The notes under the pieces: model-generated
What the model saw: the letters and a program-made list of their open reading frames with translations, nothing else
The model's database searches: none
Told to the model about the DNA's origin: nothing
In this document: one piece after another, positions 19,555 through 35,147 of the stretch
Layout: each line of letters starts with the position of its first letter
How positions within the stretch are numbered: the first letter of the stretch is position 1
Program-made: the position numbers and the translations under genes
Source of the DNA: Ignavibacteriaceae bacterium
Lineage (GTDB): Bacteria > Bacteroidota > Ignavibacteria > Ignavibacteriales > Ignavibacteriaceae
Direction of reading: 5' to 3'
NCBI GenBank assembly: GCA_035293265.1
Contig: DATDOL010000107.1
Coordinates: 1 to 35,147 of the forward strand
DNA length: 35,147 nucleotides

Positions 19555-21066
19555 TTAAGAAGTGATTTTTTCCAGCAGTGAAATTAAATCTTTTTTAGCA
19601 AAAGGTTTTACTAAAAATTCATCTGCGCCGGCTCTATAAAATTGCTGAATCTTATCCCGCATAAATTCACTTGATATTATCAGCAAAGGAATTTTTACAG
19701 CATTATCAGTCTTAAGTCTTTTACAAAGGTCAATCCCCTTATCCCAATAATTCTTTGTGATATCCATTATAATAACTCTAAAGTTATCCTCACCAACAAC
19801 TTTAGAATCAAATCCTCTGTAATTATATACTTTTATCTGATAGCTGCCTTTAAGAAAGGCCTTTAATAATTCGAAAGACTCTCCTGTATCATCAAGCATT
19901 AATATTTTAGCAGCACCATTTGCTTCAACAGTATATTTTTCTTTAATCAAAACACTCTTTTTAGACAGCGGCAATGTAAAAGTAAAAGTTGTTCCGACAC
20001 TCTTTATGCTGTCAACAAGCAATGATCCACCCATTTTTTCGATATATCTTTTAGCTAAAGCCAATCCCAAACCATTGCCTTCAAAATTTCTTCCAACATC
20101 CAGATTTTCCTGGCTGAATGGACGATAAAGATGATCAAGGTATTCGGTTGAAATCCCGATCCCTGTATCCTTAACTTTACAAACAGCGAGGTCTCTCTCC
20201 TTTAGCAACCCGACTTCAACATCTATAAAACCCTGCTGGGTAAACTTGACTGCATTATCCAATAAATTATTAATCACATTTTCGGTGCACTGTAAATCTA
20301 TTTCAACAAGCATACTATCAGCTTCAAAACTTGTTTTAAAGTCCAATTTTTTTTCTGCTGCAATTTTTTTATACGGTGCGACGCAATGATTAAATACATT
20401 TATCAGATCATAGCTTTCAATATTTAACTGGTAATTACCGGCTTCAATCTGGGCAAACTCAAGCATTTGGGTAATACTTTTAAACAACCTTTCGCTGCCT
20501 GAATAAAGATTGTCAAGGTAAACTTTTTCTTCATTGCTGATTCTATCTTTCAGATTTTCCTTAATAATAGTTGCGTATCCGAGAATAATATTAAGCGGAG
20601 TTCGCAGTTCATGTGACAGCACATTCAGAAATGTACTTTTTAATCTTTCGGCTTCTTTACTGGCATCACGGGATTTCTGAATTTCATTTTCTGCAAGTAT
20701 CATTTCTGTATGATCTTCATGCAGAAGTACAGCGTAATTTTTGTTTTGATACATTAACGGGAAAATGCTCGTTCTAAGCAACGGTACTGCGGCTTCTCGA
20801 TTAACAAGAAGACTATCACTGTAATTGTTTATCGAAGCATAGGTTTTATTTTCCAGAGTATCCGTGATTGATTGTATAATTCCATTTCGTCGCAACTCTG
20901 GATCTTTAAAAATAACATATTCCTGGAGTTCTGTCATTGAATAGCCCCACTGAACAATAAATTCGTTATTGATGTAAACTATATAACCTTTTTCATCAAT
21001 GATTTGAACAGGGAACCGCAGTGAGTCGTAAAGCAGTTTAAAATATTTATCAATAGTATCTGACAT
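19555..21066 (-). CDS. Hybrid sensor histidine kinase (PAS, HisKA, HATPase_c, receiver)
   Basis: H-box LSHELRTPLN, N-box NLLDNAVKF, G-boxes DTGIGIS and GNGLGLALAKRY. The C-terminal receiver has LMLDD, IIMDI and KPF. Confidence 0.9.
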   Translation of the reverse strand: MSDTIDKYFKLLYDSLRFPVQIIDEKGYIVYINNEFIVQWGYSMTELQEYVIFKDPELRRNGIIQSITDTLENKTYASINNYSDSLLVNREAAVPLLRTSIFPLMYQNKNYAVLLHEDHTEMILAENEIQKSRDASKEAERLKSTFLNVLSHELRTPLNIILGYATIIKENLKDRISNEEKVYLDNLYSGSERLFKSITQMLEFAQIEAGNYQLNIESYDLINVFNHCVAPYKKIAAEKKLDFKTSFEADSMLVEIDLQCTENVINNLLDNAVKFTQQGFIDVEVGLLKERDLAVCKVKDTGIGISTEYLDHLYRPFSQENLDVGRNFEGNGLGLALAKRYIEKMGGSLLVDSIKSVGTTFTFTLPLSKKSVLIKEKYTVEANGAAKILMLDDTGESFELLKAFLKGSYQIKVYNYRGFDSKVVGEDNFRVIIMDITKNYWDKGIDLCKRLKTDNAVKIPLLIISSEFMRDKIQQFYRAGADEFLVKPFAKKDLISLLEKITS

Positions 21067-21068
21067 TT

Positions 21069-22385
21069 CTAATTCACAGGTAATGAAAATTGAATCGATG
21101 TTCCGTTATTACTTTTCAATAATACAATCTCACCGTTATGACGATCGATAATGCTCTTACAAAGAAACAGACCATAACCACCTTTATGCAAACCAAATGT
21201 ATCAAATGAACCGGCATTAATATGTTTGGGTAAACCAGGACCGTCATCCGACATAATTACACAAATTTTATTGTCTTTTTCAAATGACTTTATAAACATC
21301 GTCACGTCTTTTTTTGCCTCTGCAGAATTTGTAATAAGAAGAACTATCAAATGCTGAATTTGTTCTGAATCATAATCGCACAGCGGTAATGCATTTAATT
21401 CTGTTTTAAAGATAATCGAGCTGTATTTTTTCATAGGAGAAAGATATTTAATGACAGATTGAATTGTTCTATTTAAATCCCCGCTGTCTTTGTTAAGATT
21501 CATAATGGAAGTTTCCAACAGCACCTGCGCATATTTCTGTATGCTGCGGATGCTATCGACAGCAACTTTAGACTTTAGCTTGAGACGGTCAAAAATCAGT
21601 GATTCGGGTGCATCTGTTGTGTCATCAAATTCTAACTGAGTTTTTTCAATCATCCTTAATAAACTTTCTGTTTCAAGAAGTGCAAGATGTACAAGTCCTT
21701 GTAATGATTTTCCAATCTCTGCATCAATGCTGGATTTTAATGTTTTTCTTTCTGCTTCTATCAACTGGGCATTGGCTTCCTGCAAAGCATTATAAGCGGC
21801 TATCTGTCCATCATAAAGTTGTGCATTACGAATTGCTGAAGCTGCCTGCCCGGCTAAAATTTCAAAAGTACCTGTTATTTCCCTGACTTTAACTTTTTGA
21901 AGATGTTTGCTATCGACGTAAATAACACCGATCTTTTTTTCATTGGTTATCAGCGGTGAGCAAAGAATTGTTTGCAGATCTAACTGAAGAATACTTTTTG
22001 TAGGATCGTTGGCTGAATCACTTTGTGCGCCTTCAATAAAAATTGATTGCCCGTTTAAGAAAACGTCTTCTACAACAGTGTTGCTTACTAGAAAAGAACT
22101 TTCCGATAAGGAATGATTCTTAGAATCCATTCCAATTTTATATTCGAGGGTTCCGAGAGAATTTTGAAGAACAATAAATCCGCGTTCTGAGTTTGTAAGT
22201 CTTATGGCATTCTTCAGCACAAGTTCAAGTACATCTTCCAATATTAATGAGCGATTTATTGTATTAACAATATTTAGAATCGCTTCAAGATTTTTTACTC
22301 TTTCGGATGATTCATCTTCTGTGAGAATGTTTTTAATTCCATCATCAATATTCTTTTTAAATTCCGAGAACTTCACCACATTCAC
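21069..22385 (-). CDS. GAF-domain sensor kinase-like protein with HATPase_c (non-canonical dimerisation/His region)
   Basis: The N-terminal GAF-like region reads SERGFIVLQN...IGVIYVDS. The C-terminal ATPase boxes are ITNSAEA, DDGPGLP and GGYGLFLCKSII. I see no clear HExxxP H-box. It lies 2 nt upstream of the hybrid kinase gene. Confidence 0.75.
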   Translation of the reverse strand: MNVVKFSEFKKNIDDGIKNILTEDESSERVKNLEAILNIVNTINRSLILEDVLELVLKNAIRLTNSERGFIVLQNSLGTLEYKIGMDSKNHSLSESSFLVSNTVVEDVFLNGQSIFIEGAQSDSANDPTKSILQLDLQTILCSPLITNEKKIGVIYVDSKHLQKVKVREITGTFEILAGQAASAIRNAQLYDGQIAAYNALQEANAQLIEAERKTLKSSIDAEIGKSLQGLVHLALLETESLLRMIEKTQLEFDDTTDAPESLIFDRLKLKSKVAVDSIRSIQKYAQVLLETSIMNLNKDSGDLNRTIQSVIKYLSPMKKYSSIIFKTELNALPLCDYDSEQIQHLIVLLITNSAEAKKDVTMFIKSFEKDNKICVIMSDDGPGLPKHINAGSFDTFGLHKGGYGLFLCKSIIDRHNGEIVLLKSNNGTSIQFSLPVN

Positions 22386-22434: not shown

Positions 22435-25400
22435 TTAATCTTTTAATAGTTTTAAAGAGATAAACCATTCCCAATCATTCATTTTATTTGACCAGGCTTT
22501 AGCAATTCCTGCTGAGAGTGTTGACTCTAAATTATACCAGTGCTTTAATTTTAAATCCATCTGCGCACCAACATCAATCCAGTAATCTCCCAAATCAGAA
22601 CGTGTTAATAATCCTTGTGAATAAACCGAAAAATCAACATGATTAAGCAGCTGATTTGCGAGCTCAATGTTGCTAAATCTAATTGGTGGAAAAGCGTTTT
22701 CAAACAATATTTTTGCAAATTTCTTAGTCATCATGCTATAGATTGGAATCCCAGGAAATCTGAAAACTTTTCTAAACTGCTTAATTTCGTCATTATCAAT
22801 TCCTCTGTTTCCAAAACCACCAAAATAAAACCTTGCCTGGACCAATTGTTCATTATCCCAGAGATAACCACCCGCAAATTTTACGTGTAAAACGTTATGA
22901 TGTGCAATCCAGGTTGAAAAATCACTGAATTCCGCATAAGTATTTACTGCTGTTTCAAGAGAGTCAAAATTTGTACCGTATAACGTTAATGTATAGTCGA
23001 AATTTGTTCCAAACTCATAATCTGAACTTCCAATGCTTCTACGCAAATTTTTTGAATTTAGATTGGTTGCTAAAACAGAAAAATCCGGCTGAGAAACTCT
23101 AACTAAGTTATCGTTAACAAACTCAACACCTCTATAAACAGTAAGCGTTGATGATTGCTTAATCTTAAGTGGATTATCATACTTCCAGAAATGAGTGTGT
23201 CCAAGTTTATAACTTTCGCCCAGCATACCTCTTTTTCTATTATTAAATAAATCAAAGAATTCAGGTCCATTGTAGCTGACTTCTAAAAATAAAAACTGTT
23301 TAAAATCATACTTAAATTTTAAATGAAACAGCGGATAATCTGGTGTTTCTTTGAGAGGTGAGACACCCACTTCTATATTAAAATCATGAATTAATAACGG
23401 ATCACCGATACGTGTGAAAAATCCAAACACAACCTGGTTTTGAAATCCGCTGACTACCGGCACAAATGAATGAATGTTCAGGTTTGATAAAGCATTGTAT
23501 TCTTTTTCTTTGGTGTAGCCGAATGGATCGCTGGTTTCATAAGAATCAGGCAGCACCCATTTCATAACTTCCGGGTATTTATTAAGAATTTCCTGACCCA
23601 TATAATTTATTGCCGGTAAATAATCTGCCGGCTGGTTTAACAGCATAACCGGAATAAATCCATCAGTTGTATACTCAAAAGCCAGTAATGAATCACGAGA
23701 AATCTCTATTGGTTTAACAAGACCTGTGAGACAATGTGAAATTGCTTTAACGCTCGAACTTTCAAAACTGTATCTATAAATATTTGATACGCCATTTGTA
23801 AACGCGTTCCAGTAAAGGAATTTTCCATCTTCACTCCAGGATGGATTTTCAGGACTTCCGCTGCTTGTTAATGTGCTGAATTCAAAATTTCCACCAGACA
23901 ATAATTTTTTTATATTCGTTAATATTATTGACTGAAGTCCATTAGATCGATGAAACACAGCAGAAAGTTTATCCCCGGTTTGATTCACAGCCAGATTGAA
24001 AATATCATCGCCAGCTTCAAAGGAAGCGATTTGACTAACCTTGTTGTAAGGATAAGGCATAACAACCAAAGTTTTTATTCCCCCGTTAACTTCTACTCCC
24101 CAGAGGTCACGTGTTCCGGGTGAAATACTTAAATCTCCTACCCTGTAATTTTCAAATAATAATTTTTTCTCGCCGGATTGTGTATCTAGTACCCAGATAT
24201 CCCTAAACAATTGATTATTATTTGTTGTAAAGAAAAATAATCCCGTACCTGGATCGAAAGCAGTTGATGCAACCTGGATCATACTCGGTGTTGGTAATGA
24301 TTCAATATCTTTTCTTTCTTCGGACCTGAGATCAAGTTTTTGTATTGAAGCAAGCTGATGCGATTTATGGTAACCGAAAAAAATATTTTGTGTCAGAGCG
24401 TCAAAGTGAGGCTGTGTTACCCATCCAAAGGCTTGATTACCAATTCTTCTTAGCTGAGTTGTTTCAGATTTATTTAATACTTCGAGGTTTATTGATTGAA
24501 ATTCTTTTTCATGAAGTATAAAGTCTTCCCAGGCTTCATCAAAGTCCTTATTAAATACAGTTTCAAATTTATTTTTAAATCCCGGATAAGAATCGTCTGG
24601 TTCAACCTTTATCCACTTAATCAGATTTTCATAACCATATACTATGCTGAGATAACATACAAACCTTGCTCCATAAATATAAGCGAGTGTTTCAAGCAGT
24701 ATTGAATTATGACTTCCAATTGTTTCTATTTCCAGTTGAGAGGAGAAATTTTTCTTTTCAAGCATGAGTGTCCTGAAGTACATTTCATCAAAACTTCCCA
24801 ACAGTCTTCCATAACCACCGCTAAACCAGGTTTCAATAAATACTGCAAAAGATTCTTGATACCATCTTGGAGTATATCTTTTAAAATTAGTTAACAAACT
24901 ATAAACAATTGTTGTCGGCTGAATTTTCTCAGGAGGAACTTTCCCAAAAATTTTACGCAGAAATGCTTCCACTCCGGTAGAATGATCGTTCACAACAATA
25001 TGTACAAGTTCATGACTTAGTAGCCATTGAATTCTGTCATTATAAGGAACAATTTCGTAACCTGGTTCAAGAGGCTCTATTTCTAAACGAATAAAGTTCT
25101 GAGGAACAGTTGTTATGCTGCCAAAGCCAAAATCGTTTACATCATAAGTATTGATAATAATTTTTTCTTTCGGTTTATAATCAAACAAATTCATAAGAGG
25201 TTTTAAAGCATTCTCAGCGTCGCTCAAAATCTTATTAATCAGGTATGCATGATTTTCTCTGTAAACTATTTTAAAATGTTCACTTTCACGTTCATACCAA
25301 TCGGAATCTGTTCGTTCAAAAAAGTGAATTCTAATTTCCTCTTTGCTGGCAGAATTTAACAATTCAACTGCAACTTTTTCAGAAATATTTTTTAAATAGA

Positions 25401-26064
25401 TTTCTACGTTTCCCTGGTCATTATAAACCAGTATATCTTCAATTAATCCTTTTGGCTTCAGATCAGCAAATTCTTTTGATATTACATTCGAATTCATTAT
25501 TCTAAGAATAAAAATACCTCCGCCGGTATTTGCAAGACGAATGTTGATTTGTTCCTTTGTTTTTAAATACAAATATGTATCGTTTTCCAATTCACCAATT
25601 TTTATCTGCATGACTGAATTCACCCCGGGAATTTCATCAGCGAGAGATATTTTATTAGGACTTAAGATAATTATTGCTCTATGATATGCAAGACTAAAAA
25701 GTTCAACAGCTTCATTCATCGACACAAAAATCAATTTATCCATTAAATGGGAAGATCTTTTTAACTGATGAGAAATGAATTGGTTTGTTTCTTTTGAATA
25801 AATAGTTGCAAATGGATTCCTTGAAGTAAAGGACAAAATATTATCGGGAAAATCAATTTCAATTTTTTCTGAATTGTCGGATACTGTTGATACAAGTTTA
25901 AGTGCGTCTGCAATTTTTTCAACAGCTATGTAAATTGTTCCGTTAAAATTATAAGCTAGTATTTGAAATGAATTGTTTTTTATTGTGAATGTTACGCTGG
26001 AAATTGTTTGTGCAGTTAAAAATGCATTCAAGAGAGTGAGGAATAGGAGTGTGTTTTTTAGCAT
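22435..26064 (-). CDS. Large secreted protein: signal peptide, peptidase-MA-like HExxH domain, PD40/TolB-like beta-propeller repeats, putative C-terminal beta-barrel
   Basis: 1209 aa. Signal peptide MLKNTLLFLTLLNAFLTAQ. It has SEHFKIVY, then HELVH (25000-25014), then a downstream WYQESFAVFIETW (gluzincin-like third ligand). PD40-like repeats include SPENPSWSEDGKFLYW...SNIYRY. The C-terminal ~350 aa has an alternating beta-strand pattern with FYFGGFGNRG. Confidence 0.7.
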   Translation of the reverse strand: MLKNTLLFLTLLNAFLTAQTISSVTFTIKNNSFQILAYNFNGTIYIAVEKIADALKLVSTVSDNSEKIEIDFPDNILSFTSRNPFATIYSKETNQFISHQLKRSSHLMDKLIFVSMNEAVELFSLAYHRAIIILSPNKISLADEIPGVNSVMQIKIGELENDTYLYLKTKEQINIRLANTGGGIFILRIMNSNVISKEFADLKPKGLIEDILVYNDQGNVEIYLKNISEKVAVELLNSASKEEIRIHFFERTDSDWYERESEHFKIVYRENHAYLINKILSDAENALKPLMNLFDYKPKEKIIINTYDVNDFGFGSITTVPQNFIRLEIEPLEPGYEIVPYNDRIQWLLSHELVHIVVNDHSTGVEAFLRKIFGKVPPEKIQPTTIVYSLLTNFKRYTPRWYQESFAVFIETWFSGGYGRLLGSFDEMYFRTLMLEKKNFSSQLEIETIGSHNSILLETLAYIYGARFVCYLSIVYGYENLIKWIKVEPDDSYPGFKNKFETVFNKDFDEAWEDFILHEKEFQSINLEVLNKSETTQLRRIGNQAFGWVTQPHFDALTQNIFFGYHKSHQLASIQKLDLRSEERKDIESLPTPSMIQVASTAFDPGTGLFFFTTNNNQLFRDIWVLDTQSGEKKLLFENYRVGDLSISPGTRDLWGVEVNGGIKTLVVMPYPYNKVSQIASFEAGDDIFNLAVNQTGDKLSAVFHRSNGLQSIILTNIKKLLSGGNFEFSTLTSSGSPENPSWSEDGKFLYWNAFTNGVSNIYRYSFESSSVKAISHCLTGLVKPIEISRDSLLAFEYTTDGFIPVMLLNQPADYLPAINYMGQEILNKYPEVMKWVLPDSYETSDPFGYTKEKEYNALSNLNIHSFVPVVSGFQNQVVFGFFTRIGDPLLIHDFNIEVGVSPLKETPDYPLFHLKFKYDFKQFLFLEVSYNGPEFFDLFNNRKRGMLGESYKLGHTHFWKYDNPLKIKQSSTLTVYRGVEFVNDNLVRVSQPDFSVLATNLNSKNLRRSIGSSDYEFGTNFDYTLTLYGTNFDSLETAVNTYAEFSDFSTWIAHHNVLHVKFAGGYLWDNEQLVQARFYFGGFGNRGIDNDEIKQFRKVFRFPGIPIYSMMTKKFAKILFENAFPPIRFSNIELANQLLNHVDFSVYSQGLLTRSDLGDYWIDVGAQMDLKLKHWYNLESTLSAGIAKAWSNKMNDWEWFISLKLLKD

Positions 26065-26159
26065 TTATAAATGAGTAAAACAATAATATCGATTTTAGGT
26101 TTAGTTTTTATTTCTCATTTAAAAGTAAACAAAATTAAAATATCATGTTTAATCGATAT

Positions 26160-26192
26160 AAAAAAAGCCTTCAAATTAAATTTGAAGGCTTT
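26160..26192 (-). terminator. Rho-independent terminator downstream of the repeat-peptide gene
   Basis: Arms 26164-26177 (AAAGCCTTCAAATT) and 26179-26192 (AATTTGAAGGCTTT) are perfectly complementary. Read on the minus strand, the hairpin is followed by a U-run (complement of the A-run 26160-26166). Confidence 0.75.
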
Positions 26193-26231
26193 TAAAGTAG
26201 GCAATCTGGAGAACTAATTTATACCACTTTA

Positions 26232-26717
26232 TTACCGAACCCAACCATAAAGGCTGCCAAGTTCATCAAGCTGTGTCGATGATCTTACCCAACCATATAA
26301 GCTGCCAAGCTCATCAAGCTGTGTTGACGATCTTACCCAACCATAAAGGCTGCCAAGTTCCTCAAGCTGTGTCGATGATCTTACCCAACCATAACGGCTG
26401 CCAAGTTCCTCAAGCTGTGTTGATGATCTTACCCAACCATATAGGCTGCCAAGTTCCTCAAGCTGAGAAGATGCTCTCACCCAACCATAACGACTACCAA
26501 GTTCCTCTAACTGCGTATTGGAACGCTGATCGAGAACTCTGATGTCAGAATGATTTTCCTCAAGAATTGAGGTATTGTTGTGGGATTCAGTAACAGCAGT
26601 TATATTATCCTCTGAAATTCGATATCGGATTGCCTGATCTACATTGTCGGCAATCTGGGCGATTCCAGAAAAGAATAGTCCCCCACAAATAACCAGGGAT
26701 AATATAAGAAAACGCAT
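26232..26717 (-). CDS. Secreted tandem-repeat peptide precursor: signal peptide, ~60-aa unique region, then six 16-aa units SSTQL[E/D]ELGS[L/R]YGWVR
   Basis: The ORF track starts at GTG 26726, but the ATG at 26717 gives MRFLILSLVICGGLFFSGIAQ, a typical signal peptide. Six in-frame 48-nt repeats fill 26235-26522, and the stop follows the last Arg directly. A sigma-54 promoter lies upstream and a terminator downstream, both on this strand. No known family recognised. Confidence 0.75.
   Translation of the reverse strand: MRFLILSLVICGGLFFSGIAQIADNVDQAIRYRISEDNITAVTESHNNTSILEENHSDIRVLDQRSNTQLEELGSRYGWVRASSQLEELGSLYGWVRSSTQLEELGSRYGWVRSSTQLEELGSLYGWVRSSTQLDELGSLYGWVRSSTQLDELGSLYGWVR
26235..26522 (-). 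repeat. Six contiguous 48-bp tandem repeats (coding, in frame)
   Basis: Unit boundaries are 26235, 26283, 26331, 26379, 26427 and 26475. Units are near-identical with scattered substitutions that are mostly synonymous. There are no spacers between units. Confidence 0.95.
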
Positions 26718-26777
26718 AGCGCCCACTCACTTTAATTGATAATGACACACTTGAACTGCGATTACAACTCACCCGAA

Positions 26778-26795
26778 AACTGTGTGCACACAGTT
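26778..26795. promoter_or_regulatory. 18-bp perfect palindrome AACTGTGTGCACACAGTT in the predicted 5' leader of the repeat-peptide gene
   Basis: The sequence equals its own reverse complement. It lies between the sigma-54 promoter (26817-26831) and the start codon (26717). It is comparatively GC-rich for this intergenic region. Confidence 0.5.
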
Positions 26796-26816
26796 CAGTT
26801 TAAGCAGATAAAAAAC

Positions 26817-26831
26817 CCAATGTTTGTGCCA
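26817..26831 (-). promoter_or_regulatory. Sigma-54 (-24/-12) promoter candidate: TGGCAC-AAACA-TTGG
   Basis: The minus-strand sequence TGGCACAAACATTGG matches the TGGCAC-N5-TTGC consensus with correct spacing and one mismatch (final C to G). It sits ~100 nt upstream of the repeat-peptide ATG and next to a sigma-54 activator gene. Confidence 0.65.
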
Positions 26832-27038
26832 TTAGAAAAGAGATAATCAATTGAAATTTTAATCTATTTAGATGATATGTAAGGAAATAATTACCAAAAT
26901 TCTCACGTAATTATTCTAATTTGTAAAAAATAGTTACAGTTTTTTGAAATTACACTAACTATTTCATCAATAACTTAAGTGCGAAAATTTACAAAAAATG
27001 AGGGAATTTGAAATCAATTATTCGAAAAACGAAACAAG

Positions 27039-28424
27039 CTACTTCTGTTTTTCCAACAAAGTATCAAGTTTAGGTCGTGAAATGCCAAGCAATTTTGCTG
27101 TTCGTGTTTTATTTCCCTGCAGCTTTTCCAGAACTTTTTCGGCATAAAATTTCTCTAGTTTCCTCAGGTTTGTCGAGCCATAGTTCACTTCAAATTTTAC
27201 CATATGCCTGTTCTCTTCAAATTGATTTTCATCATGAATAGCTTTGATAGAAACTGATTTAATCAGATTTGAAAAATCATCAAGTGTCAATCTTCCATTA
27301 TCTGAAAGTAAAACAGCACGCTCAATCGCATTTCTTAATTCTCTAACATTTCCCGGCCACGGATATCCTAAAAGAAAATGTTTAATGTCTTTATCAACCT
27401 TCCTGATTGTTCTATTAAACTGCTTATTGAATTCTGTAATAAAATGATTAGCCAGAATGATCACGTCTTCACCACGTTCTCTCAACGGAGGTACGTCAAT
27501 AGTAACAACATTAAGTCTATGGTAAAGATCTCTTCGAAACAAATTTTCTTCCACCATTTGTTCAATATTCCTATTTGTTGCTGAAATTATTCTTGCATTG
27601 ATAGGAATATCCACCACTCCACCTAATCTTTTAATCACTTTTTTTTCAATTGCGCGCAACAGTTTTGTTTGAATATTAGGACTAAGATCACCAATTTCAT
27701 CCAGAAACAGGGTGCCTCTGTCTGCTAATTCAAACAAACCGATTTTTCTGTTCCTTGCACTAGTAAAAGCCCCGGCTTCATAGCCGAATAATTCCGATTC
27801 CAGCAAACTTTCGGGAATAGCTGTGCACACAATATCTATAAATGGAAATTGACCTGTTCTCCCATTGTTATGTATTGCTCGTGCAAAAAGTCCTTTGCCG
27901 GTGCCGGTTTCCCCAAGTAATAACACACTTGCGCCGCTTTTTTCCGAAACCTTTTTTGCAAGATCCACTACACGAACAAATTTATCCGATTCACCTATTA
28001 TGGATTTGAGACCACGTCGATTTATCCCAAATGCACCTATTCGATCGGTTTCGGTAATGTAAGATTTGTTTGAAATAACCTCGGCAAGAAATGAAGTGAA
28101 TTTGAGTATTTCGTATGGAAATATAAAAATATCATGAAATCCTTTTTTAAGAAGAGAAGTAACCTGGAGCGAGTCTCCGTTCCGCATTACAATCAAAAAT
28201 ATATTTGAATTTTCTCTCCTAGTTGCCAGAGCTTTCTTAAGAAATAATGATTCCTGTGATTCGATGTGCAGAACAATAATCTCATTATCAAAAACTTCAA
28301 AATTCTCTTCGAAGCTTACAGAGATAGGCATCCCTTTGAGTTCCAATTGCTTAAGGGCAGATGATACTGAAACTGTATCCTGTGAATCGCTAAATACTTT
28401 TATTTTAATCTGGGAATCGGACAT
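27039..28424 (-). CDS. Sigma-54-dependent transcriptional activator (bEBP, NtrC family) with degenerate N-terminal receiver-like domain
   Basis: AAA+ core: Walker A GETGTGKG, ESELFGYEAGAFTSA (GAFTGA loop, 27756-27773), Walker B LFLDEIGDL, and WPGNVRELRN. The C-terminal Fis-type HTH is TRTAKLLGISRPKL. The preferred start is ATG 28424 (MSDSQIK), 4 nt after the kinase stop. The ORF track begins at 28451. Confidence 0.9.
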   Translation of the reverse strand: MSDSQIKIKVFSDSQDTVSVSSALKQLELKGMPISVSFEENFEVFDNEIIVLHIESQESLFLKKALATRRENSNIFLIVMRNGDSLQVTSLLKKGFHDIFIFPYEILKFTSFLAEVISNKSYITETDRIGAFGINRRGLKSIIGESDKFVRVVDLAKKVSEKSGASVLLLGETGTGKGLFARAIHNNGRTGQFPFIDIVCTAIPESLLESELFGYEAGAFTSARNRKIGLFELADRGTLFLDEIGDLSPNIQTKLLRAIEKKVIKRLGGVVDIPINARIISATNRNIEQMVEENLFRRDLYHRLNVVTIDVPPLRERGEDVIILANHFITEFNKQFNRTIRKVDKDIKHFLLGYPWPGNVRELRNAIERAVLLSDNGRLTLDDFSNLIKSVSIKAIHDENQFEENRHMVKFEVNYGSTNLRKLEKFYAEKVLEKLQGNKTRTAKLLGISRPKLDTLLEKQK

Positions 28425-28428
28425 ATAT

Positions 28429-31400
28429 TTAAACCGAACTGTAAGCCTCAATTTTTTCTAAGGCTAACTTAACATCCTTCTGATTTATATATGAGTTCCT
28501 TAACTGCGGAGATTGAATATTTTCTGCAATAAAATTTATCAATTCCTTTGCATAGATAAAAAAACCTTTAGCTCTGTTAAAATTTCCTCTTTCTATATAG
28601 ATATCAGATTGCATCAATAAAACCTTCCAGGTCAATTCTGTAATGCTCTCATCCTTTATTAATTCATACGCTCTTTCCAGGTATTCAATCGGTGGCGAAA
28701 GTCTTTCAGACTCATAAACCGATGCAATTTTTGCCAGAAAATATTCCCTTTGTGATTCTAATATACTGTTTTGATTAATTATTTCAATAAATACTTTGTC
28801 ATTTATTTCGTTTAACGCTTGCTCATAATTCTTTTGATCAATTAAAACTTTGATAATTGTAAAATTTACTTCGGTATACTTATTTCTTTCGTCCATCTCA
28901 ACAAAAGCGTCTCTGATTGATCTTAATCCACTCACCTCAGGAAATTTATTGTCCAGAATTTTATATAAGGCATCGATATACTTCAAGGAATATTTATGCT
29001 TTGGCAGTAAATTTTTTTCTTCGATTAATTTTCTAAATCGATCTAAGATATCTCTCATTCTATTCATACTACCAATCAGGTTATAGAAATTGCCGTAAAG
29101 GTAAAGCACTTCAGCAAGTTCTTCATCATTCTCATTCGCTTCAAAGATTTGCATCGCTTGCTGCAGGGAATTAAAAACATGCTGATACTCGCATCCTATC
29201 ATGTATACCTCAGCAAGATTGTACAAAACCAGACCCTGATTTATTTGATTACCAAGGCTTAAAAATATTTTAATTGCATTTTTGTAGTTCTCTACCGCTC
29301 TATCAAATTTCTGGTGATTATAATAATAGATTCCTGTATTTAGGAGTATCAATCCTTCCTGTTCAAGGTTTCCAATAGATTCGTTTATATCCGATGCCCT
29401 GTTCCAATGTTCTTCTGCTTTTGAATGGATTCCTAAAATATTGAATATGTTTCCTACATTGACTTCAACTCCTGCAACGCGCCGTGGCAATCCTGCCTGT
29501 TTATAATTTTCAATGGCGAACATAAACTCTGTAAGAGCAGAATGAAGATCATTATTCTTATATATATAGCACATCCCAAGCAGGTTGTGACAGCGGCCTC
29601 TGAGTTCAAACGATAATTTTTTATCCTTTAAAAGTGATTTACTTATTCTCGAAGCTTCGTCATATATTTTTTGTTCAAATTCAGCATAAGCCATCTCTAC
29701 AAATATTTTATGTTTCAGGGTTACGTCGACTTTCCGTTTCAGCAATTCATTCAGCATTTTTTTAGCTTCATCAAATTTACCAACGTTAAAAAGTGAACTG
29801 CTTTTCAAAATTTGAATTTCAGTCTGAACCTTATCATCAAGATTTATTCCCTCTAAAGAATTTATAACCTCTAATGCTGATTGATAATCACTCATTTTAT
29901 AATATACATCGCAAAGTTTTATTTTAACATCGGTTTTCTTTATACCCCTGAGTGGTAATCCGGCTAAATGTTCCAATATTTTTTTCATATAAGAATATGC
30001 TGAATGTTTTTCAACATCTTCAATTTCTATGCACATCGTTTCATAACACAAATCATATTTTCCTGCAAGCTCATAATGTCTGGCTAATTCACTTCTATTA
30101 AAATATTGCAGATTTTTTTTGATTCTTTCCGCAAGCACCAGGTGAAGCCCGGTCTTATTTTTAACAGAACTGTATATATGCTTCTTAAATCCATCTGAGG
30201 TTATCAATAACGAGCTGCCTGATGTAAAATGCTGCAGAACATTATAAACCTGAAGTTTGAAAACTATATCAGAAATTTTTTGAAATGGGATGTCAAGTAG
30301 TGCTACAAGTGTGTTCATCTCAATGACAACATCCAAAGCCGAAATAATTTGAACAACTTTTAATTCTGTTTTCGAAAAATTCTTTAATCTATAATCATAA
30401 AGCACTTCATGAGAACTTTTTAATACCCGTATCGCTTCTTCATTTTTATTTATTTCCACTCCGGATGGAAGATGCCTGACGATCCCAAGTAATATTAAAT
30501 CCTTAATAAACGATACTATGCTGCCAGGCAATAAATCAGCGTATTTGACTATGAGATTAATCAATTCTTCCCGGGGAAAGGACGCTGAGTAACTTTGCTT
30601 TATGAATTCTGTGACCTGCACATCGGTAAACGAACTGAGTAAGACATCTCTTACATTATTAATTTCTGTTGATTTGTAACGGTTGTCAGCTGTTTCGGCG
30701 AGAATTATTTTTATGCTGTTTACCTGAAAAATTGGAATGATCGAACTAAGTATTTCAGAGGATAAATCATCAAGCAGGTTGAAGTCATCAATTAATAAAA
30801 TAAACTTAGTCTTTTTAGCAATTAAAGAAATTACCTCCGGCAGCCGAAGTACAAAGCTGGAATCGGATTCATCAGTCAAAGAATTAATTTTTGTAAGTTC
30901 TTCTGTTGAAAGAAAATCATAAACCGATTTTGAAAAAACAATTTCTTTCAAAAGGTATTTAATTAATTTTATCCCGGACTTTCCTTTTTGATTACTGACC
31001 ATAACAGAACCGGGATAAATTTCGTGTACCCTATTCAGTATTGCTGTCTTTCCAGCTCCATCAAATCCTTTTAAAGTAAAAGCCTCACTGCTTGTTTTAT
31101 CATTTATGTAAACAAATAAAATGTTGAGAACATCCGTTCGATCTGAAAATACTTTTGCGGGCAGGAAATCTTTTGTAATCGAGTCATCGACTTCAATTTC
31201 CAAATCACTTAAAACCTGTAATGCGTTTTGAAATCTATCTTCAGGGTTTTTAGCAAGAAGCTTTTTAACAACCTCAATTAGTTCATTTGAATATTTTATA
31301 GTTAGAGGAAAGTCAAATTCATTTTCTAACTTCGATTTATAGATTGCAAGTTCATCCGATGAATTAAAAGGAAACCTGTCATAAATAATCCTGTAAAGCA

Positions 31401-31995
31401 TCATCCCGAGAGAATAAAGATCAACCCTGTGATCATGTTCTTCCTTCTTCAGCAGTTCGGGAGCGATATACTGTGCAGTACCTTTGACATCATTTTTAAG
31501 CTCTTCACTTCCAAGCTGTGCAAATCCAAGATCAATTAATTTAATGACCGGGTTTCCACCGGGGTTTGCGACCAGAATATTTTCGGGTTTCAGATCATAG
31601 TAGATGTAATTTGATTGATGAAGATAATACAAGACTGAGCATATTTGATTTAGTATTATTTTTAATGATAATTCATTCCTTATAAAAACGGATTGAAGCA
31701 GCTCGCTTGATGGAAAATATTCAAGTGTGATGAATGGAACCCCGGATTCAACAGCATCGTTCTCGCTTTTTTCCAGAATTGTTCCAATCTCAAGAGCGCG
31801 AATGATATTCGGATGATCTAGTTTTTTTAAAGTGAAATACTCTCTCCTGAAATATTCTCTTTCAACATCATTTGCCCCGGATGATAAAACTTTTATGGCA
31901 ATTTCAGCATCCATAAACTCAGCGTCTTTACATATGTAAACAGCACTGCGGCCTTGTCCGATTTTTTTAATTATCTCATATCGTTTATTAATCAT
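28429..31995 (-). CDS. Hanks-type Ser/Thr protein kinase fused to a P-loop NTPase (STAND/AAA_16-like) and a long TPR-like helical-repeat C-terminus
   Basis: Kinase motifs: IGQGRSAVY, IAIKVL, YYDLKPENILV (31594-31602 encodes YYD), IDLGFA and YIAPE. Walker A GFDGAGKT lies at 31045-31068, followed by Walker B LLIDDFNLLD. The C-terminal ~550 aa contains repeated TPR-like helical pairs. Its ATG overlaps the OppC-like TGA (ATGA). Confidence 0.85.
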   Translation of the reverse strand: MINKRYEIIKKIGQGRSAVYICKDAEFMDAEIAIKVLSSGANDVEREYFRREYFTLKKLDHPNIIRALEIGTILEKSENDAVESGVPFITLEYFPSSELLQSVFIRNELSLKIILNQICSVLYYLHQSNYIYYDLKPENILVANPGGNPVIKLIDLGFAQLGSEELKNDVKGTAQYIAPELLKKEEHDHRVDLYSLGMMLYRIIYDRFPFNSSDELAIYKSKLENEFDFPLTIKYSNELIEVVKKLLAKNPEDRFQNALQVLSDLEIEVDDSITKDFLPAKVFSDRTDVLNILFVYINDKTSSEAFTLKGFDGAGKTAILNRVHEIYPGSVMVSNQKGKSGIKLIKYLLKEIVFSKSVYDFLSTEELTKINSLTDESDSSFVLRLPEVISLIAKKTKFILLIDDFNLLDDLSSEILSSIIPIFQVNSIKIILAETADNRYKSTEINNVRDVLLSSFTDVQVTEFIKQSYSASFPREELINLIVKYADLLPGSIVSFIKDLILLGIVRHLPSGVEINKNEEAIRVLKSSHEVLYDYRLKNFSKTELKVVQIISALDVVIEMNTLVALLDIPFQKISDIVFKLQVYNVLQHFTSGSSLLITSDGFKKHIYSSVKNKTGLHLVLAERIKKNLQYFNRSELARHYELAGKYDLCYETMCIEIEDVEKHSAYSYMKKILEHLAGLPLRGIKKTDVKIKLCDVYYKMSDYQSALEVINSLEGINLDDKVQTEIQILKSSSLFNVGKFDEAKKMLNELLKRKVDVTLKHKIFVEMAYAEFEQKIYDEASRISKSLLKDKKLSFELRGRCHNLLGMCYIYKNNDLHSALTEFMFAIENYKQAGLPRRVAGVEVNVGNIFNILGIHSKAEEHWNRASDINESIGNLEQEGLILLNTGIYYYNHQKFDRAVENYKNAIKIFLSLGNQINQGLVLYNLAEVYMIGCEYQHVFNSLQQAMQIFEANENDEELAEVLYLYGNFYNLIGSMNRMRDILDRFRKLIEEKNLLPKHKYSLKYIDALYKILDNKFPEVSGLRSIRDAFVEMDERNKYTEVNFTIIKVLIDQKNYEQALNEINDKVFIEIINQNSILESQREYFLAKIASVYESERLSPPIEYLERAYELIKDESITELTWKVLLMQSDIYIERGNFNRAKGFFIYAKELINFIAENIQSPQLRNSYINQKDVKLALEKIEAYSSV

Positions 31996-33281
31996 ATATC
32001 AAGACGCGGATTAAAAAATTTGTTTAATCTTCTTCCAAAATAATTTGCGGAAAAAAGTGTAACGACCAGACAGCCGCCCGGAAATATGATCATCCACCAG
32101 GCTTTTGTGATGTATTCCTGTCCTGACTGTATCATTGCCCCCCATGAAGGATAACTGTCTCCGGTACCTAAACCAAGATAGCTCAGAGCAGATTCTGCAA
32201 GAATAACATTGCTGAATTGAAAAATTAAATTTACAATTACGGGGGCGATGATAACGGGCAATATTTCCCTGAACAAAATTTTATTCGATTTTATTCCGAG
32301 AAGTTTTGAGGTTTGTATATAGTCTTTTTGCTTGAGGGAATTTACTTCTCCTCTTACTATCTTAAATAAACTCATCCATCCTGATATTCCCAGTACAATA
32401 ACTACAGCAAATAATGAACTTGAAAACAATGCAAGAATTAAAACAACCAGGTAAATAACTGGAAATGCCAAAAGTAATTCTGCAAACCTGTTAAGAACCA
32501 TATCAATTAAGCCTCCTTTATAACCTGCAATAAATCCCAGTGTAATACCAAGCAGAAACGAAATAAAGACCGCACCGATTCCAACTAACAAGGATATCCT
32601 TAATCCATAAACTAATCTTGTAAATGTATCTCTGCCGAATTCATCAGTACCGAGAAGAAATGTTTTGGTTGTTACCAAGGGTTCTCTATTATCTTTAATC
32701 AATTTATCGTCCGGAATTTCTTTCATAATATTTTTTTGATGATATAATATTTTATCAGATGTTATAGCACCTATACTGTCGGCGTAAATAATACTTTCAT
32801 TAAATACCTCCCTAAGAATTTTTCTTTTATAAAGCAGGAATTTATTTAAAGAGTTACCCTCAGAACTATCTTCAATTTTCAAATGCAGAACTTTAACTTT
32901 GCTTAATGGAGAAAGGTGTTTGGTTACGCTTAAATTTTTCTGAAAATCCGGGTTCCCTCTTGTAATTATTTGCGCCATTAAAAATGTTATAAGCAGAATT
33001 ATGATAACACCGGATGAAAAATTTAGATTATACTTTAAAATTTTTATCCGCCGGTGATAAACAATCATAATTAATGGAACAAGAATAAAAATTATTAAGG
33101 AAAGCAATGAATCAATAAGTTTAAAATCCAGCAGAGTTAAAGCACCATCGAAATCATTGAACAACAAAGAAAAGTATTTAAACCATAAAACTGCCAGTTC
33201 AGTCAACCTCGTAAATTGCAGTAAAATAATTAGCAGCCAAATTGCTGAAGTGAACTGCCATATTTTTAATTTAAATTTCAT
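31992..33281 (-). CDS. ABC transporter permease, OppC/DppC type, with an N-terminal extension
   Basis: LGTDEFGRDTFTRLVYGLRISL and the BPD-transporter EAA-like loop (ESALSYLGLG) are present. At 429 aa it is clearly longer than a canonical OppC, with extra hydrophobic segments at the N-terminus. Confidence 0.85.
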   Translation of the reverse strand: MKFKLKIWQFTSAIWLLIILLQFTRLTELAVLWFKYFSLLFNDFDGALTLLDFKLIDSLLSLIIFILVPLIMIVYHRRIKILKYNLNFSSGVIIILLITFLMAQIITRGNPDFQKNLSVTKHLSPLSKVKVLHLKIEDSSEGNSLNKFLLYKRKILREVFNESIIYADSIGAITSDKILYHQKNIMKEIPDDKLIKDNREPLVTTKTFLLGTDEFGRDTFTRLVYGLRISLLVGIGAVFISFLLGITLGFIAGYKGGLIDMVLNRFAELLLAFPVIYLVVLILALFSSSLFAVVIVLGISGWMSLFKIVRGEVNSLKQKDYIQTSKLLGIKSNKILFREILPVIIAPVIVNLIFQFSNVILAESALSYLGLGTGDSYPSWGAMIQSGQEYITKAWWMIIFPGGCLVVTLFSANYFGRRLNKFFNPRLDI

Positions 33282-34264
33282 ATCACATTTCCCCGAAGCA
33301 GTCTTTTATCAATTTTTAGTTTAAGAAGATCGGCAATAAAATTAGTGAGTATCATTAAAAGTCCGGCAGCAAAAGTACAGCCGATTATAAGAGGATAATC
33401 CCTGGTTAAAATTGAATCAATTGTCAGTCTTCCCATTCCCGGCAAGCTAAAAATAACTTCAGTAATAAGCGTTCCGCCTAAAAGTATTCCTAATTCAATT
33501 CCGGCAACAGAAATAAACGGACCAATTGCATTTGGAATTACATGCTTCCTAAGAATTGTGTTTTCATTTAATCCATTTGCTCTCAGCTGCACAATAAAAG
33601 TTTGGTGATAAATATCTTCCAGGTTATCCCTCAGATACCGATAAAATAAGGCGATTCCGGCTATCGATAAAGTTATCAACGGAAGAATAAGATGGTGAAT
33701 TTTATCAAGAAGTTTTTCAAAATAATTTAATGAATCATAATCGAGTGAAGTAAAACCAGAAGTTGGAAACAAATCTACCTGGACAGCAAGCAGATAAATC
33801 AGCAGAACACCAATTACAAACGCAGGTGTGCTGTAAAAAATCAGCGAGAGGTTGGAAATTAAATTATCGGTATTTTTATTTTGTTTTTGAATAGTGTAAA
33901 CAGCTAAATAATAACTCACGATAATCTGAACAAGGAAACTGATTGCGGCAATCACAAGCGTGAAGGAAAGAAATTCCCACACAACCGAAGTCACCGGCAT
34001 CCGGTAATTGTAAGATATGCCTAAATCTCCTTTAATTAAGTTAGCGACAAAGCTTAAGTACTGCTCGGGAAGCGGATCATTCAGTTTGAAGTCCTCGGCA
34101 ACTTTTTGTGCTATTTCTGGACTGAGTTCTGGTGAAATAAATTTCTGTGCCGGGTTTCCAGGAGAGATCCTTATTAAAATGAACAGCAGACTAATCAGCA
34201 AAAACAGTGTTATTAAAGAAGAGATTAATCTTTTAATAACTGCTTTACTGAATTTATTATTCAT
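33278..34264 (-). CDS. ABC transporter permease, OppB/DppB type
   Basis: 328 aa. The N-terminus is KRLISSLITLFLLISLLFILIRISPGNP. Also present are DPLPEQYLSFV..L.GDLGISY and the EAA-loop region. A 4-nt overlap joins it to the OppC-like gene. Confidence 0.9.
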   Translation of the reverse strand: MNNKFSKAVIKRLISSLITLFLLISLLFILIRISPGNPAQKFISPELSPEIAQKVAEDFKLNDPLPEQYLSFVANLIKGDLGISYNYRMPVTSVVWEFLSFTLVIAAISFLVQIIVSYYLAVYTIQKQNKNTDNLISNLSLIFYSTPAFVIGVLLIYLLAVQVDLFPTSGFTSLDYDSLNYFEKLLDKIHHLILPLITLSIAGIALFYRYLRDNLEDIYHQTFIVQLRANGLNENTILRKHVIPNAIGPFISVAGIELGILLGGTLITEVIFSLPGMGRLTIDSILTRDYPLIIGCTFAAGLLMILTNFIADLLKLKIDKRLLRGNVI

Positions 34265-34270
34265 AAATTT

Positions 34271-35147
34271 TTAATCGCTGATTTTCCATTCCCAGCAATG
34301 TGTGATTGAACCTAGTGGAGTTATGTGTATGTTTTTAATTCTTTTATTATATACTGTAATATTAGGGATCCAGTATAAAAAAGTTACCGGTTGATCATTA
34401 TGAATTATTTCCTGGAATTTAAAGTACAAATCTTTTTTTCTTTTGTCGGATATTTTTTGTTCCAATTCATTAATTATATCGTCCGCTTGTTTATTCTGAT
34501 AACTAACAAAATTCAACGGGGTCATTTCCAGGTCCGAATACCAGTAAGACTTAAGCTCAACAGGAATAGGGATATACCAGGCTGCCATCCAGGCATCCAT
34601 TTTCTTTTCATACAGGTGATCTATAAATGAACCCATTTCAAGATTAACAATTTTCATTTCTATGCCAATAGAAGCAAGATTATTTTTTATGATAGTTGAA
34701 GCATAATTTCTAAGCGGATTGCCGGACGGAAAATATAATGTAAATCTAAACTCTGTATTATTTTTATCTAAAATTCCATTATTATTGGTATCCTTCCAGT
34801 CTTCTGCTGCAAGAAGTTTTTTTGCCGTTTCGGTATTATACTGATATGCTTTTATTTCCGGGTTAAAATATCTTTTAAAAATTTTTGAAACGGGGCTAAC
34901 TGCTATCTCACCGTAATTCAGCAAATACTCTTCAAGAATTTCCTGATTGTTAATTGCATGCGAAAGTGCAATTCTGACATTTTTATTTCCGAAAAGTTTG
35001 TGCAGTATGATTTTATTTTCTTTAGTGAATAATTCCGGATCAATATTATTCCAACCGATATAATCATACTCTCTTCCCACAACTGAAACAATATTAAGCG
35101 ATTGGTTCTTTCTCATATCCTCAATGTCCTCGGTTTTAACAAGTTCC
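34271..35147 (-). CDS. ABC transporter substrate-binding protein, family 5 (peptide/nickel, OppA/DppA-like); N-terminal part lies outside the window
   Basis: The frame stays open to the window edge, upstream of Met 35116. VRIALSHAINNQEILEE, YQYNTETAKKLLAAEDWKD.NNNGILDK and the FTLYF pattern match SBP_bac_5. Confidence 0.85.
   Translation of the reverse strand, partial: ELVKTEDIEDMRKNQSLNIVSVVGREYDYIGWNNIDPELFTKENKIILHKLFGNKNVRIALSHAINNQEILEEYLLNYGEIAVSPVSKIFKRYFNPEIKAYQYNTETAKKLLAAEDWKDTNNNGILDKNNTEFRFTLYFPSGNPLRNYASTIIKNNLASIGIEMKIVNLEMGSFIDHLYEKKMDAWMAAWYIPIPVELKSYWYSDLEMTPLNFVSYQNKQADDIINELEQKISDKRKKDLYFKFQEIIHNDQPVTFLYWIPNITVYNKRIKNIHITPLGSITHCWEWKISD

Follow-up and report, generated by a model that had tools for sequence, protein, structure and literature searches.

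The PRE locus

The 35,147-nucleotide (nt) contig DATDOL010000107.1 of an Ignavibacteriaceae bacterium (NCBI GenBank assembly GCA_035293265.1), referred to below in its full length as the window, carries on its minus strand a short repeat-encoding gene, here called PRE, with a second gene, BIG, downstream of it and genes for a sigma-54 activator, a Ser/Thr protein kinase and an ABC importer upstream (Table 1). Judging from its anatomy and conservation, PRE is probably the precursor of released peptides, and the two-gene PRE-BIG module is the core of the system described here.

The minus-strand open reading frame (ORF) at 26232..26726 was confirmed in the ORF list and by translation. Its likely start is ATG 26717, since homologs begin with MR(F/I/L); GTG 26726 is the upstream alternative. 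By the small-x-small rule, the signal peptide of PRE is probably cut before Gln21; across the family, A20 and Q21 each show conservation of 90% or more. In the leader that follows, alignments A1 and A2 show no variation at A29, R31 and R33 and almost none at V26. The array that closes the protein encodes the peptides SNTQLEELGSRYGWVR, ASSQLEELGSLYGWVR, SSTQLEELGSRYGWVR, SSTQLEELGSLYGWVR and, two times, SSTQLDELGSLYGWVR. Each of the six units ends in Arg, another Arg stands before unit 1 (DQR|S), and the stop codon TAA follows the last Arg. Tandem Repeats Finder (TRF) ranks this array well above every other repeat of the window, with a period of 48 nt, 5.6 copies, 89% matches and a score of 412. 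Translation and TRF therefore bear out the description given by an earlier, sequence-only reading of this stretch, i.e., a signal-peptide ORF ending in six Arg-bounded 48-nt units (26235-26522) with the stop after the last.

Table 1. Features of the PRE locus and its surroundings in the window.
Feature	Position	Strand	Details
PRE precursor gene	26232..26717	(-)	161 aa + stop; likely start ATG 26717
PRE signal peptide	26658..26717	(-)	MRFLILSLVICGGLFFSGIA; single hydrophobic segment, residues 1-19
PRE leader motif	26616..26645	(-)	NVDQAIRYRI; family consensus NVExAxR[YF]R[VI]
Six 48-nt units	26235..26522	(-)	last 96 codons of PRE, contiguous, in frame
Individual units	26522-26475, 26474-26427, 26426-26379, 26378-26331, 26330-26283, 26282-26235	(-)	
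BIG	22435..26064	(-)	1209 aa, signal peptide; downstream of PRE
Palindrome UAS1	26922..26938	(-)	TGTAA-N7-TTACA; candidate activator binding site
Palindrome UAS2	26883..26895	(-)	GGTAATTATTTCC; candidate; consensus GGTAAT-N-ATTACC
Sigma-54-type -24/-12 element	26817..26831	(-)	TGGCACAAACATTGG (TGGCAC-N5-TTGG); 114 nt upstream of ATG
Leader-RNA hairpin	26780..26793	(-)	CTGTGTGCACACAG; conserved; predicted 5' end of PRE transcript
Intrinsic terminator	26163..26193	(-)	14-bp stem AAAAGCCTTCAAAT/ATTTGAAGGCTTTT, then T-run
Sigma-54 enhancer-binding activator	27039..28451	(-)	probable ATG 28424; Sigma54_activat, AAA_lid_14, HTH_8 (Pfam)
Ser/Thr protein kinase + AAA_16 NTPase + TPR repeats	28429..31995	(-)	1188 aa; Pfam
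Opp/Dpp-type ABC importer genes	31992..35147	(-)	Pfam BPD_transp_1 twice, SBP_bac_5
Importer permease	31992-33281	(-)	
Importer permease	33278-34264	(-)	
Importer family-5 solute-binding protein	from 34271	(-)	cut by window end
GAF/HATPase histidine-kinase-like protein	21069-22385	(-)	Pfam; conserved downstream of BIG in Ignavibacteriales
PAS/HisKA/HATPase/receiver hybrid kinase	19555-21066	(-)	Pfam; conserved downstream of BIG in Ignavibacteriales

The codons vary across the units (Leu as CTA, CTT, TTA and again CTT; Val as GTG, GTA or GTT; Arg as AGA or CGG). The examples of such differences in the earlier reading were right, but Leu and Arg alternate at residue 11 of the unit instead of residue 12. 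On the opposite strand, an ORF of 89 aa at 26273-26542 (+) (MILPNH..CQVPQAV units) mirrors the repeat; it is a by-product of the opposite-strand repeat and no gene, with selection acting on the minus-strand frame.

PRE found no family match in Pfam or NCBIfam. A PADLOC match to BrxB and a PHROG match were rejected as repeat-summed noise, in which no single stretch passes alone. The AlphaFold2 (AF2) model, built on a 16-sequence alignment, contained short helices only, at low confidence (predicted local distance difference test (pLDDT) score of 50, predicted template modelling (pTM) score of 0.15), and this lack of a confident fold weakly argues against a structural repeat protein.

Spread of the family and selection on its units

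Searching 5.8 billion proteins yielded 81 close relatives of PRE, all unannotated and all from Ignavibacteria-type sources, and a hidden Markov model (HMM) search of 1.84 billion representative proteins gave 137 matches only. A pattern search using alignment A2, run on one genome per GTDB species, confirmed 125 PRE loci, of which 79 were kept; these were all from Ignavibacteriales or from Ignavibacteriota metagenome-assembled genomes, some of them labelled 'Bacteroidetes bacterium'. No description of the family was found in a literature search. Individual loci and proteins are cited below by our L and P numbers.

Variable repeat lengths and unconserved Arg boundaries, which the earlier reading had counted against released peptides, were looked for among the orthologs. 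Instead, the unit period is strictly 16 aa, R/K precedes unit 1 in 60 of 63 orthologs, and the final residue is R/K in 53 of 55. It is the number of copies that varies, from 2 to 20 per gene, with 9-20 in long-read assemblies vs. 2-6 in short-read ones. Short-read contigs often stop inside or beside PRE (e.g., L019, L023, L050, L074, L077, L078, L092, L098 and L114). Since such assemblies routinely collapse or break the gene, the six copies of the window could be an underestimate, and PRE is under-represented in current annotations.

Compared with each other by the Nei-Gojobori method, the six units of the window gave a proportion of synonymous differences (pS) of 0.455 and of nonsynonymous differences (pN) of 0.084. 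Across 76 loci, the medians between units of one gene were 0.25 for pS, 0.026 for pN and 0.115 for pN/pS; this ratio stayed below 0.5 in 71 of the 76, and pS reached 0.7. At L064, for instance, 15 units combine a pS of 0.35 with a pN of 0.003. Units inside one protein are near-identical (mismatch of at most 12% at any position), and differences between species cluster at positions 2, 13 and 15, a concerted pattern with cores specific to each species. Four residues (Q4, E7, L8 and G9) do not vary at all, and conservation is strong at S1, R11, Y12, W/F14 and R/K16. These values show purifying selection on the peptide sequence of every copy.

The same values bear on the suggestion that the repeat is a product of recent replication slippage, or an assembly artefact, in a gene without particular function. 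Slippage can indeed produce tandem 48-nt repeats, and short-read assemblies do mishandle the PRE locus. However, the six copies differ from each other at 2-15 of 48 nt, mainly at synonymous sites, the same 16-aa period recurs across more than 125 genomes at species level, long-read and closed assemblies included, pN/pS is about 0.11, and both promoter and terminator are conserved (see below). The synonymous divergence, the shared period and the low pN/pS refute this explanation, to which we attach next to no probability, and they uphold the earlier proposal that selection acts on the peptide rather than slippage having created the repeat.

Two further PRE copies lie in other gene contexts. The copy of L065 (10001-10738) has 10 units and its own sigma-54-type element, and no importer, kinase or BIG was detected near it; L024 also holds a PRE copy in a different context. 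Both could be second copies or misassemblies.

A two-part unit: spacer and core

The PRE unit is best read as having two parts, with the conserved acidic spacer SSTQLEELG ahead of the core S[R/L]YGWVR. In general form, the spacer S-x-[ST]-Q-L-[ED]-E-L-G comprises 9 aa with a net charge of -2, and the core S-[R/L]-Y-G-W-V-R comprises 7 aa with a net charge of +2 or +1. Distant members of the family retain the signal peptide, the leader (as NVEKAxR[FY]R) and a recurring [SA]xQ[LV]x[ED]LG element, after which the cores vary in sequence and length (5-20 aa) within one protein. P0329 of Ca. Electrothrix communis, for example, carries the cores GSMTLPAQVR, NGIAPMVR, VSISGDAR and RVLSTK. Some cores are shared between distant proteins, i.e., GYLWNN is found in six, and PRWRWW, PRWKWW and CPYCNRGNVF also recur. 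The logic of a multi-core precursor, which the sequence-only reading had invoked for the window, is supported by the distant members, in which xxQLxELG flanks different and sometimes recurring cores.

Close relatives of PRE accept insertions exactly after ELG (P0010, with ELG-DETDG-RYGWVR, as well as P0026 and L067), and the Arg boundaries are absent from distant members. Because of these two features, the released product may be a 7-mer rather than the 16-mer proposed earlier: the 16-aa period of that proposal is real, but the unit has two parts, and the 7-aa core may be what is released. The conserved R/K ahead of unit 1 favours cutting at R/K|S, and the pattern across the superfamily favours an additional cut after ELG. 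A trypsin-like cut after Arg-11, which would yield a YGWVR pentamer, was downgraded as a candidate. Leu-11 dominates in the PRE of the window and is fixed in all copies of L127, L136 and L138, so that Arg-11 is not essential.

The opposite charges of spacer and core raise the question of whether PRE is instead a polyprotein of antimicrobial or toxic peptides, whose cationic Arg/Trp cores are kept neutral by the acidic spacers up to their release by BIG; in that case, importer, kinase and activator would not be purely for signalling and would serve autoinduction or sensing related to immunity. This would suit a spacer of -2 next to a core of +2, the core pattern R-[YF]-x-[WF]-x-[RK] and the PRWRWW/PRWKWW cores of distant members, which short Arg/Trp antimicrobial hexapeptides resemble. 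Up to 20 copies would provide a high dose, and the many different cores per distant precursor, some with Cys pairs, are reminiscent of an arsenal of toxins or bioactive peptides. Apidaecin and Ib-AMP are eukaryotic examples of multi-copy antimicrobial precursors to which PRE can be likened. On the other hand, the cluster has neither a conserved immunity gene nor a conserved exporter. The dominant core of the window, SLYGWVR, has a charge of only +1, and this very variant is fixed in L127, L136 and L138; many cores of the family are uncharged (e.g., GYLWNN and GFVWND). Moreover, peptides of 6-7 residues are usually weak antimicrobials, and the gene order ties PRE to a peptide importer and a cytoplasmic sensor in one tight operon arrangement. 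We therefore regard an antimicrobial role as unlikely, and retain the precursor of released signal peptides as the preferred reading.

Promoter, leader and terminator of PRE

The sigma-54-type element upstream of PRE (26831..26817) is the only perfect match to TGGCAC-N5-TTGG in the window. Among the PRE loci examined, such an element was found in 60 of 63 with an activator gene vs. 1 of 14 without, counts that come from phylogenetically non-independent loci. In most activator-positive loci, 50-129 nt separate it from the assigned PRE start downstream; it is further out in three loci (-239, -287 and -389), where the PRE start is uncertain.

Two palindromes lie further upstream and are candidate binding sites of the activator. 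The half-sites of UAS1 are invariant in 15 aligned species, and the site is unique in the window. UAS2 is conserved in the same number of aligned species, with one mismatch to its consensus in the copy of the window. Across the whole window, neither a second perfect sigma-54 element nor a second UAS1 palindrome was found.

Downstream of the promoter, the predicted transcript opens with a conserved hairpin, followed by the conserved blocks GGGTGAG and GTGTGTCAT. In an alignment of 15 upstream regions, the hairpin of L033 reads CTCC/GGAG vs. CTGC/GCAG in the others. This hairpin may act as an mRNA-stabilising or regulatory leader. An Rfam scan of 25900-27200 returned just one sub-threshold match (Phe_leader), which falls on the terminator, and left the leader hairpin unmatched.

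At the other end of the gene, a hairpin with T-run occurs within 150 nt past the PRE stop in 70 of 71 loci. Since both its own promoter and a strong terminator are conserved, PRE appears to be a monocistronic, activator-dependent unit. This agrees with the earlier description of the gene as insulated, in that the sigma-54 element co-occurs with the activator gene and the terminator with PRE.

In two divergent loci, a different element of about 40 nt (ATGTGACyTTTTGGrGAAAACTnnCGACTCTAT) stands upstream of PRE, twice in L006 (~9830-9990) and once in L089 (~9900-9950). This element probably serves type-B precursors as another kind of promoter or operator, one not of the sigma-54 type.

BIG, the partner of PRE

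BIG proteins generally measure about 1000-1200 aa. In Ignavibacteriales, PRE has BIG as its neighbour in about 70 loci, essentially all of those that extend far enough. When BIG was used as bait in JGI metagenomes, a PRE-like ORF was found immediately upstream in 60 of 61 loci with enough upstream DNA, the exception being L125. Four divergent loci, L006, L089, L088 (Ca. Electrothrix communis CP130629) and L090, show the pairing as well. The BIG homologs of the last three are full length and 35-46% identical, with HELxH kept; in L006, a BIG-like ORF of 564 aa (50% identical) spans the HExxH domain and a portion of the propeller only. In L088 (3509644-3530171) and L090, the pair sits among toxin-antitoxin genes (PIN, VapB, PhdYeFM and HigB) and Fic genes, together with an ISL3-type transposase fragment and a giant NB-ARC/TPR gene, so that its setting in cable bacteria looks like an accessory or mobile island.

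The AF2 model of BIG (pLDDT of 79.6, pTM of 0.76) shows four regions, starting with N-terminal beta domains; next come a helical domain that holds the motif HELVH and a TolB-like beta-propeller, and the C-terminal domain comprises about 17 long beta strands. The propeller matches TolB (E-value of 1e-9 via Foldseek); the Foldseek matches of the whole model cover the propeller only and include TolB-colicin peptide complexes. The HELVH (HExxH) motif is invariant in 32 homologs, with conserved Glu residues 49-56 residues downstream. In searches against Pfam (E-values up to 10), NCBIfam and PDB sequences, the latter with phmmer and with a profile of the 32 homologs, the HExxH domain had no peptidase relative. 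The earlier designation of this neighbour as a secreted metallopeptidase is tentative, its basis being the invariant HExxH in a helical domain that matches no family. On balance, we somewhat favour BIG as the processing enzyme of PRE, and the simplest reading would be that it docks on the repeated spacer, probably via its TolB-like propeller, and cuts the array by means of its HExxH domain into many copies of one short peptide.

The propeller also lends itself to another explanation, according to which PRE stays uncut and is a disordered multivalent protein that binds the BIG propeller or another envelope partner, whether as a surface or matrix component, as an adhesin or fibre subunit exported via BIG, or as a regulator or substrate-mimic of BIG. 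The repeated xxQLxELG is the most conserved element of the superfamily, as would be expected of a docking motif, and TolB-type propellers bind disordered peptides, as in the TolB-colicin complexes among the Foldseek matches. A copy number free to vary between 2 and 20 fits as well, and abundant structural subunits, for example type IV pilins, are likewise typically encoded by monocistronic genes with a sigma-54 promoter and a strong terminator. Against this, the segments between the motifs are identical within a protein and under strong purifying selection, the same cores turn up in different proteins, and 53 of 55 orthologs end exactly on the last core residue. AF2 shows no repeat fold or beta-arcade, the high charge density speaks against amyloid-like assembly, and the link to a peptide importer would lack an explanation. 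An uncut PRE thus seems improbable, slightly more so than an antimicrobial one, and release of peptides by cleavage remains the reading pursued here.

Importer, kinase and activator

In the window, the kinase gene shares 4 nt with the permease gene ahead of it and is followed within a few nt by the activator gene. The order of solute-binding protein, two permeases, kinase, activator, PRE and BIG is kept in about 60 species, whereas the outer flanks differ; in relatives, two ABC ATPase genes lie divergently upstream of the importer. The best NCBIfam match of the solute-binding protein is the oligopeptide-binding protein Opp4A. The importer upstream and the conserved PRE-BIG pairing, neither of which the sequence-only reading had noted, are the strongest functional clues of the locus, and an importer so tightly operon-linked to a cytoplasmic sensor fits self-sensing better than an antimicrobial role.

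The N-terminal ~140 aa of the activator align to receiver domains. With NtrC as the reference, this receiver-like domain lacks equivalents of D54, T82 and K104 in 61 orthologs. Since the phospho-acceptor Asp is missing, the activator would need an input other than Asp phosphorylation, and an input from the Ser/Thr kinase to this pseudo-receiver is plausible. No convincing transmembrane segment was found in the kinase, the activator or the two histidine kinases encoded downstream of BIG, nor was a cognate response regulator for these two histidine kinases found in the cluster.

Co-evolution was assessed by a partial Mantel test of the consensus PRE unit vs. each neighbouring protein or domain, over loci that are phylogenetically non-independent. 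The TPR domain of the kinase ranked top in a set of 46 loci (partial r of 0.27-0.32, p-value of 0.001), and the BIG propeller was weakly positive both in this set and in a 29-locus subset that also has the binding protein and the activator.

In lineages without importer, kinase and activator, a gene of about 1020-1060 aa for a TPR-CHAT protein (CHAT being a caspase-like protease) lies beside PRE-BIG or at most ~6 kb from it, i.e., in L006 (6628-9687 (-)), L089 (6673-9846 (-)), L093, L094 and L110. The proteins of L006 and L089 have a lipoprotein-type signal (..LSC and ..FSC, respectively); those of L093, L094 and L110 are tblastn matches only. TPR proteins thus recur as partners of PRE-BIG while the output differs.

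Elsewhere in the window, a pair of adjacent genes (3446-4141 and 4141-4722 (-)) suggestive of a tandem lspA duplication was noted, both members of which match signal peptidase II (Peptidase_A8).

Proposed mechanism

From the anatomy of the genes, the selection on the units, the conserved promoter, palindromes and terminator and the gene partnerships described above, we infer a chain of events whose cleavage, protease, uptake, sensing and kinase-to-activator steps are put forward conditionally. PRE would be exported by Sec as a polyprotein consisting of signal peptide, leader and six spacer-core modules. After cutting of the array by BIG, the C-terminal beta domain of BIG, which probably anchors the protein in the outer membrane, may let the peptides out. 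In Ignavibacteriales, the adjacent Opp-type ABC importer would probably take the peptide up again; the cytoplasmic kinase would sense it through its TPR domain and act on the sigma-54 activator via the pseudo-receiver of the latter. Finally, the activator would bind the two palindromes and fire the sigma-54 promoter of PRE, closing an autoinduction loop resembling quorum sensing.

For this chain as a whole, i.e., a secreted peptide precursor, its processing by BIG, import, and feedback on its own promoter, we estimate a probability of roughly 0.45. The import-based autoinduction loop is a tentative proposal, with the odds leaning mildly against it. More doubtful again is the widest claim, that PRE-BIG is an unrecognised secreted-peptide system that spans phyla, cuts a cassette precursor with conserved spacer and interchangeable cores by means of a dedicated outer-membrane enzyme, and has been wired into import-based quorum sensing in Ignavibacteriales.

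Several observations weigh against the chain. Firstly, not all loci have all of its parts. One clade (L026, L043, L046, L047, L048, L051, L055, L060 and L004/L069) has the order importer-kinase-PRE-BIG, with neither activator nor sigma-54 element, and its BIG is shorter (~975 aa), lacking the N-terminal 250 aa. Conversely, the Melioribacteraceae locus L042 has importer, activator, PRE and BIG and no kinase, and distant PRE-BIG pairs are without importer and kinase. As the activator is dispensed with in the one case and the kinase in the other, the sensing module is modular. Secondly, the co-evolution result is not robust, in that the TPR signal in the partial Mantel test is gone in the 29-locus subset, and the solute-binding protein has no co-evolution signal in this test. 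The co-occurrence of promoter and activator was, as said, counted over non-independent loci, and synteny inside one order may partly reflect shared ancestry. Thirdly, BIG would be assigned its peptidase role through a HExxH domain that matches no peptidase family, and its probable C-terminal outer-membrane barrel is deduced from secondary structure only. Lastly, in a diderm the peptide must pass the outer membrane twice.

Ignavibacteriota are abundant in sediments, wastewater and hot springs, with hardly any genetics available, and we know of no peptide self-signalling system in them. With the PRE locus, this group has a concrete candidate for a signalling loop based on peptide import, one that can be put to the test. 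Beyond it, an unannotated two-gene module is now defined, composed of a multi-core precursor and a protease-like protein, probably of the outer membrane, and reaching into cable bacteria. Its diverse cores, some of them Cys- or Trp/Arg-rich, may include new ribosomal bioactive peptides, and BIG may represent a new protease family with a defined substrate.

Comparison with known systems

In its layout, PRE resembles several groups of precursors. Like double-glycine leaders (of C39-peptidase ABC exporters), with their ...ELxxIxGG, the PRE spacer often ends in ...ELGG or ...ELGS before the core. However, the residue register differs, the motif is internal and repeated, PRE has a Sec signal, and no C39 exporter is present in the cluster. 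With functional amyloids such as curli, PRE shares a probable outer-membrane partner (BIG), but this partner has a protease-like domain, and PRE itself has highly charged units and no predicted beta-arcade or beta-solenoid. The PADLOC anti-phage models gave generic matches to the kinase and the AAA+ domain of the activator only, and none to BIG.

The precursors of yeast alpha-factor (MFalpha1), fungal KEX2-processed repeat proteins, animal neuropeptides and apidaecin-type peptides likewise consist of a signal and pro-region followed by tandem copies of spacer and peptide, with a basic residue at the unit boundaries, an end on the last peptide residue, and a layout of acidic spacer and basic peptide. 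PRE differs from them in being bacterial, in its monobasic rather than dibasic boundaries and in the lack of a kexin/subtilisin homolog, so that this is an analogy and not homology.

Closer in some respects are the multi-core precursors of peptides that are made by ribosomes and modified after translation (RiPPs), such as the cyanobactin precursor PatE. Here, too, short cores downstream of a leader are flanked by conserved recognition elements that repeat; depending on the precursor, the cores are either all alike or hypervariable, and a protease-like gene lies alongside. In contrast to PatE, PRE has a Sec signal, and its relatives all start with a hydrophobic segment resembling a signal peptide, so that they would mature in the periplasm or outside the cell and not in the cytoplasm, and the partner is a protein with HExxH domain, propeller and probable barrel instead of a subtilisin-like PatA/PatG. 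No tailoring enzyme (heterocyclase, macrocyclase, radical-SAM or other) was found in the conserved cluster or among the window ORFs of at least 100 aa. The modification at the YGW motif that the sequence-only reading had considered thus has no candidate modification enzyme in the window.

Signalling by re-import of a peptide and a cytoplasmic TPR sensor is, to our knowledge, considered characteristic of the Gram-positive Bacillota and of the phages infecting them, and diderm bacteria are thought to rely mainly on small-molecule autoinducers. It is RRNPP(A) signalling of Bacillota (Rap-Phr, NprR-NprX, PlcR-PapR and AimR-AimP) that PRE recalls in the proposed chain as a whole. Both involve a propeptide of Sec-type export that is, or in the case of PRE would be, processed outside the cytoplasm, genes for an Opp-type importer beside the sensor gene, and a cytoplasmic sensor with TPR repeats. 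In both, the propeptide has several copies of the putative peptide, which varies among species; Phr propeptides may carry tandemly duplicated pheromones (PMC11343458). PRE, with its N-terminal signal sequence, lies one gene past the kinase in about 60 species.

The differences are equally clear. The host of PRE is a diderm of the Ignavibacteriota and not a member of the Bacillota, and distant PRE members include Ca. Electrothrix. The sensor would be a Ser/Thr kinase of 1188 aa with NTPase and TPR repeats, in which no RRNPP family (Rap/NprR/PlcR/PrgX/Rgg/AimR type) was detected via Pfam or NCBIfam, and the output would run through a sigma-54 activator with a pseudo-receiver. PRE itself reaches 20 copies with a long conserved spacer and has a dedicated protease-like partner, probably in the outer membrane. 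The PRE-BIG system therefore belongs to none of the RRNPP, multi-core RiPP or eukaryotic polyprotein groups. If the proposed chain is true, it would be the first RRNPP-like autoinduction circuit based on peptide import outside the Bacillota, assembled from non-homologous parts in a diderm host.

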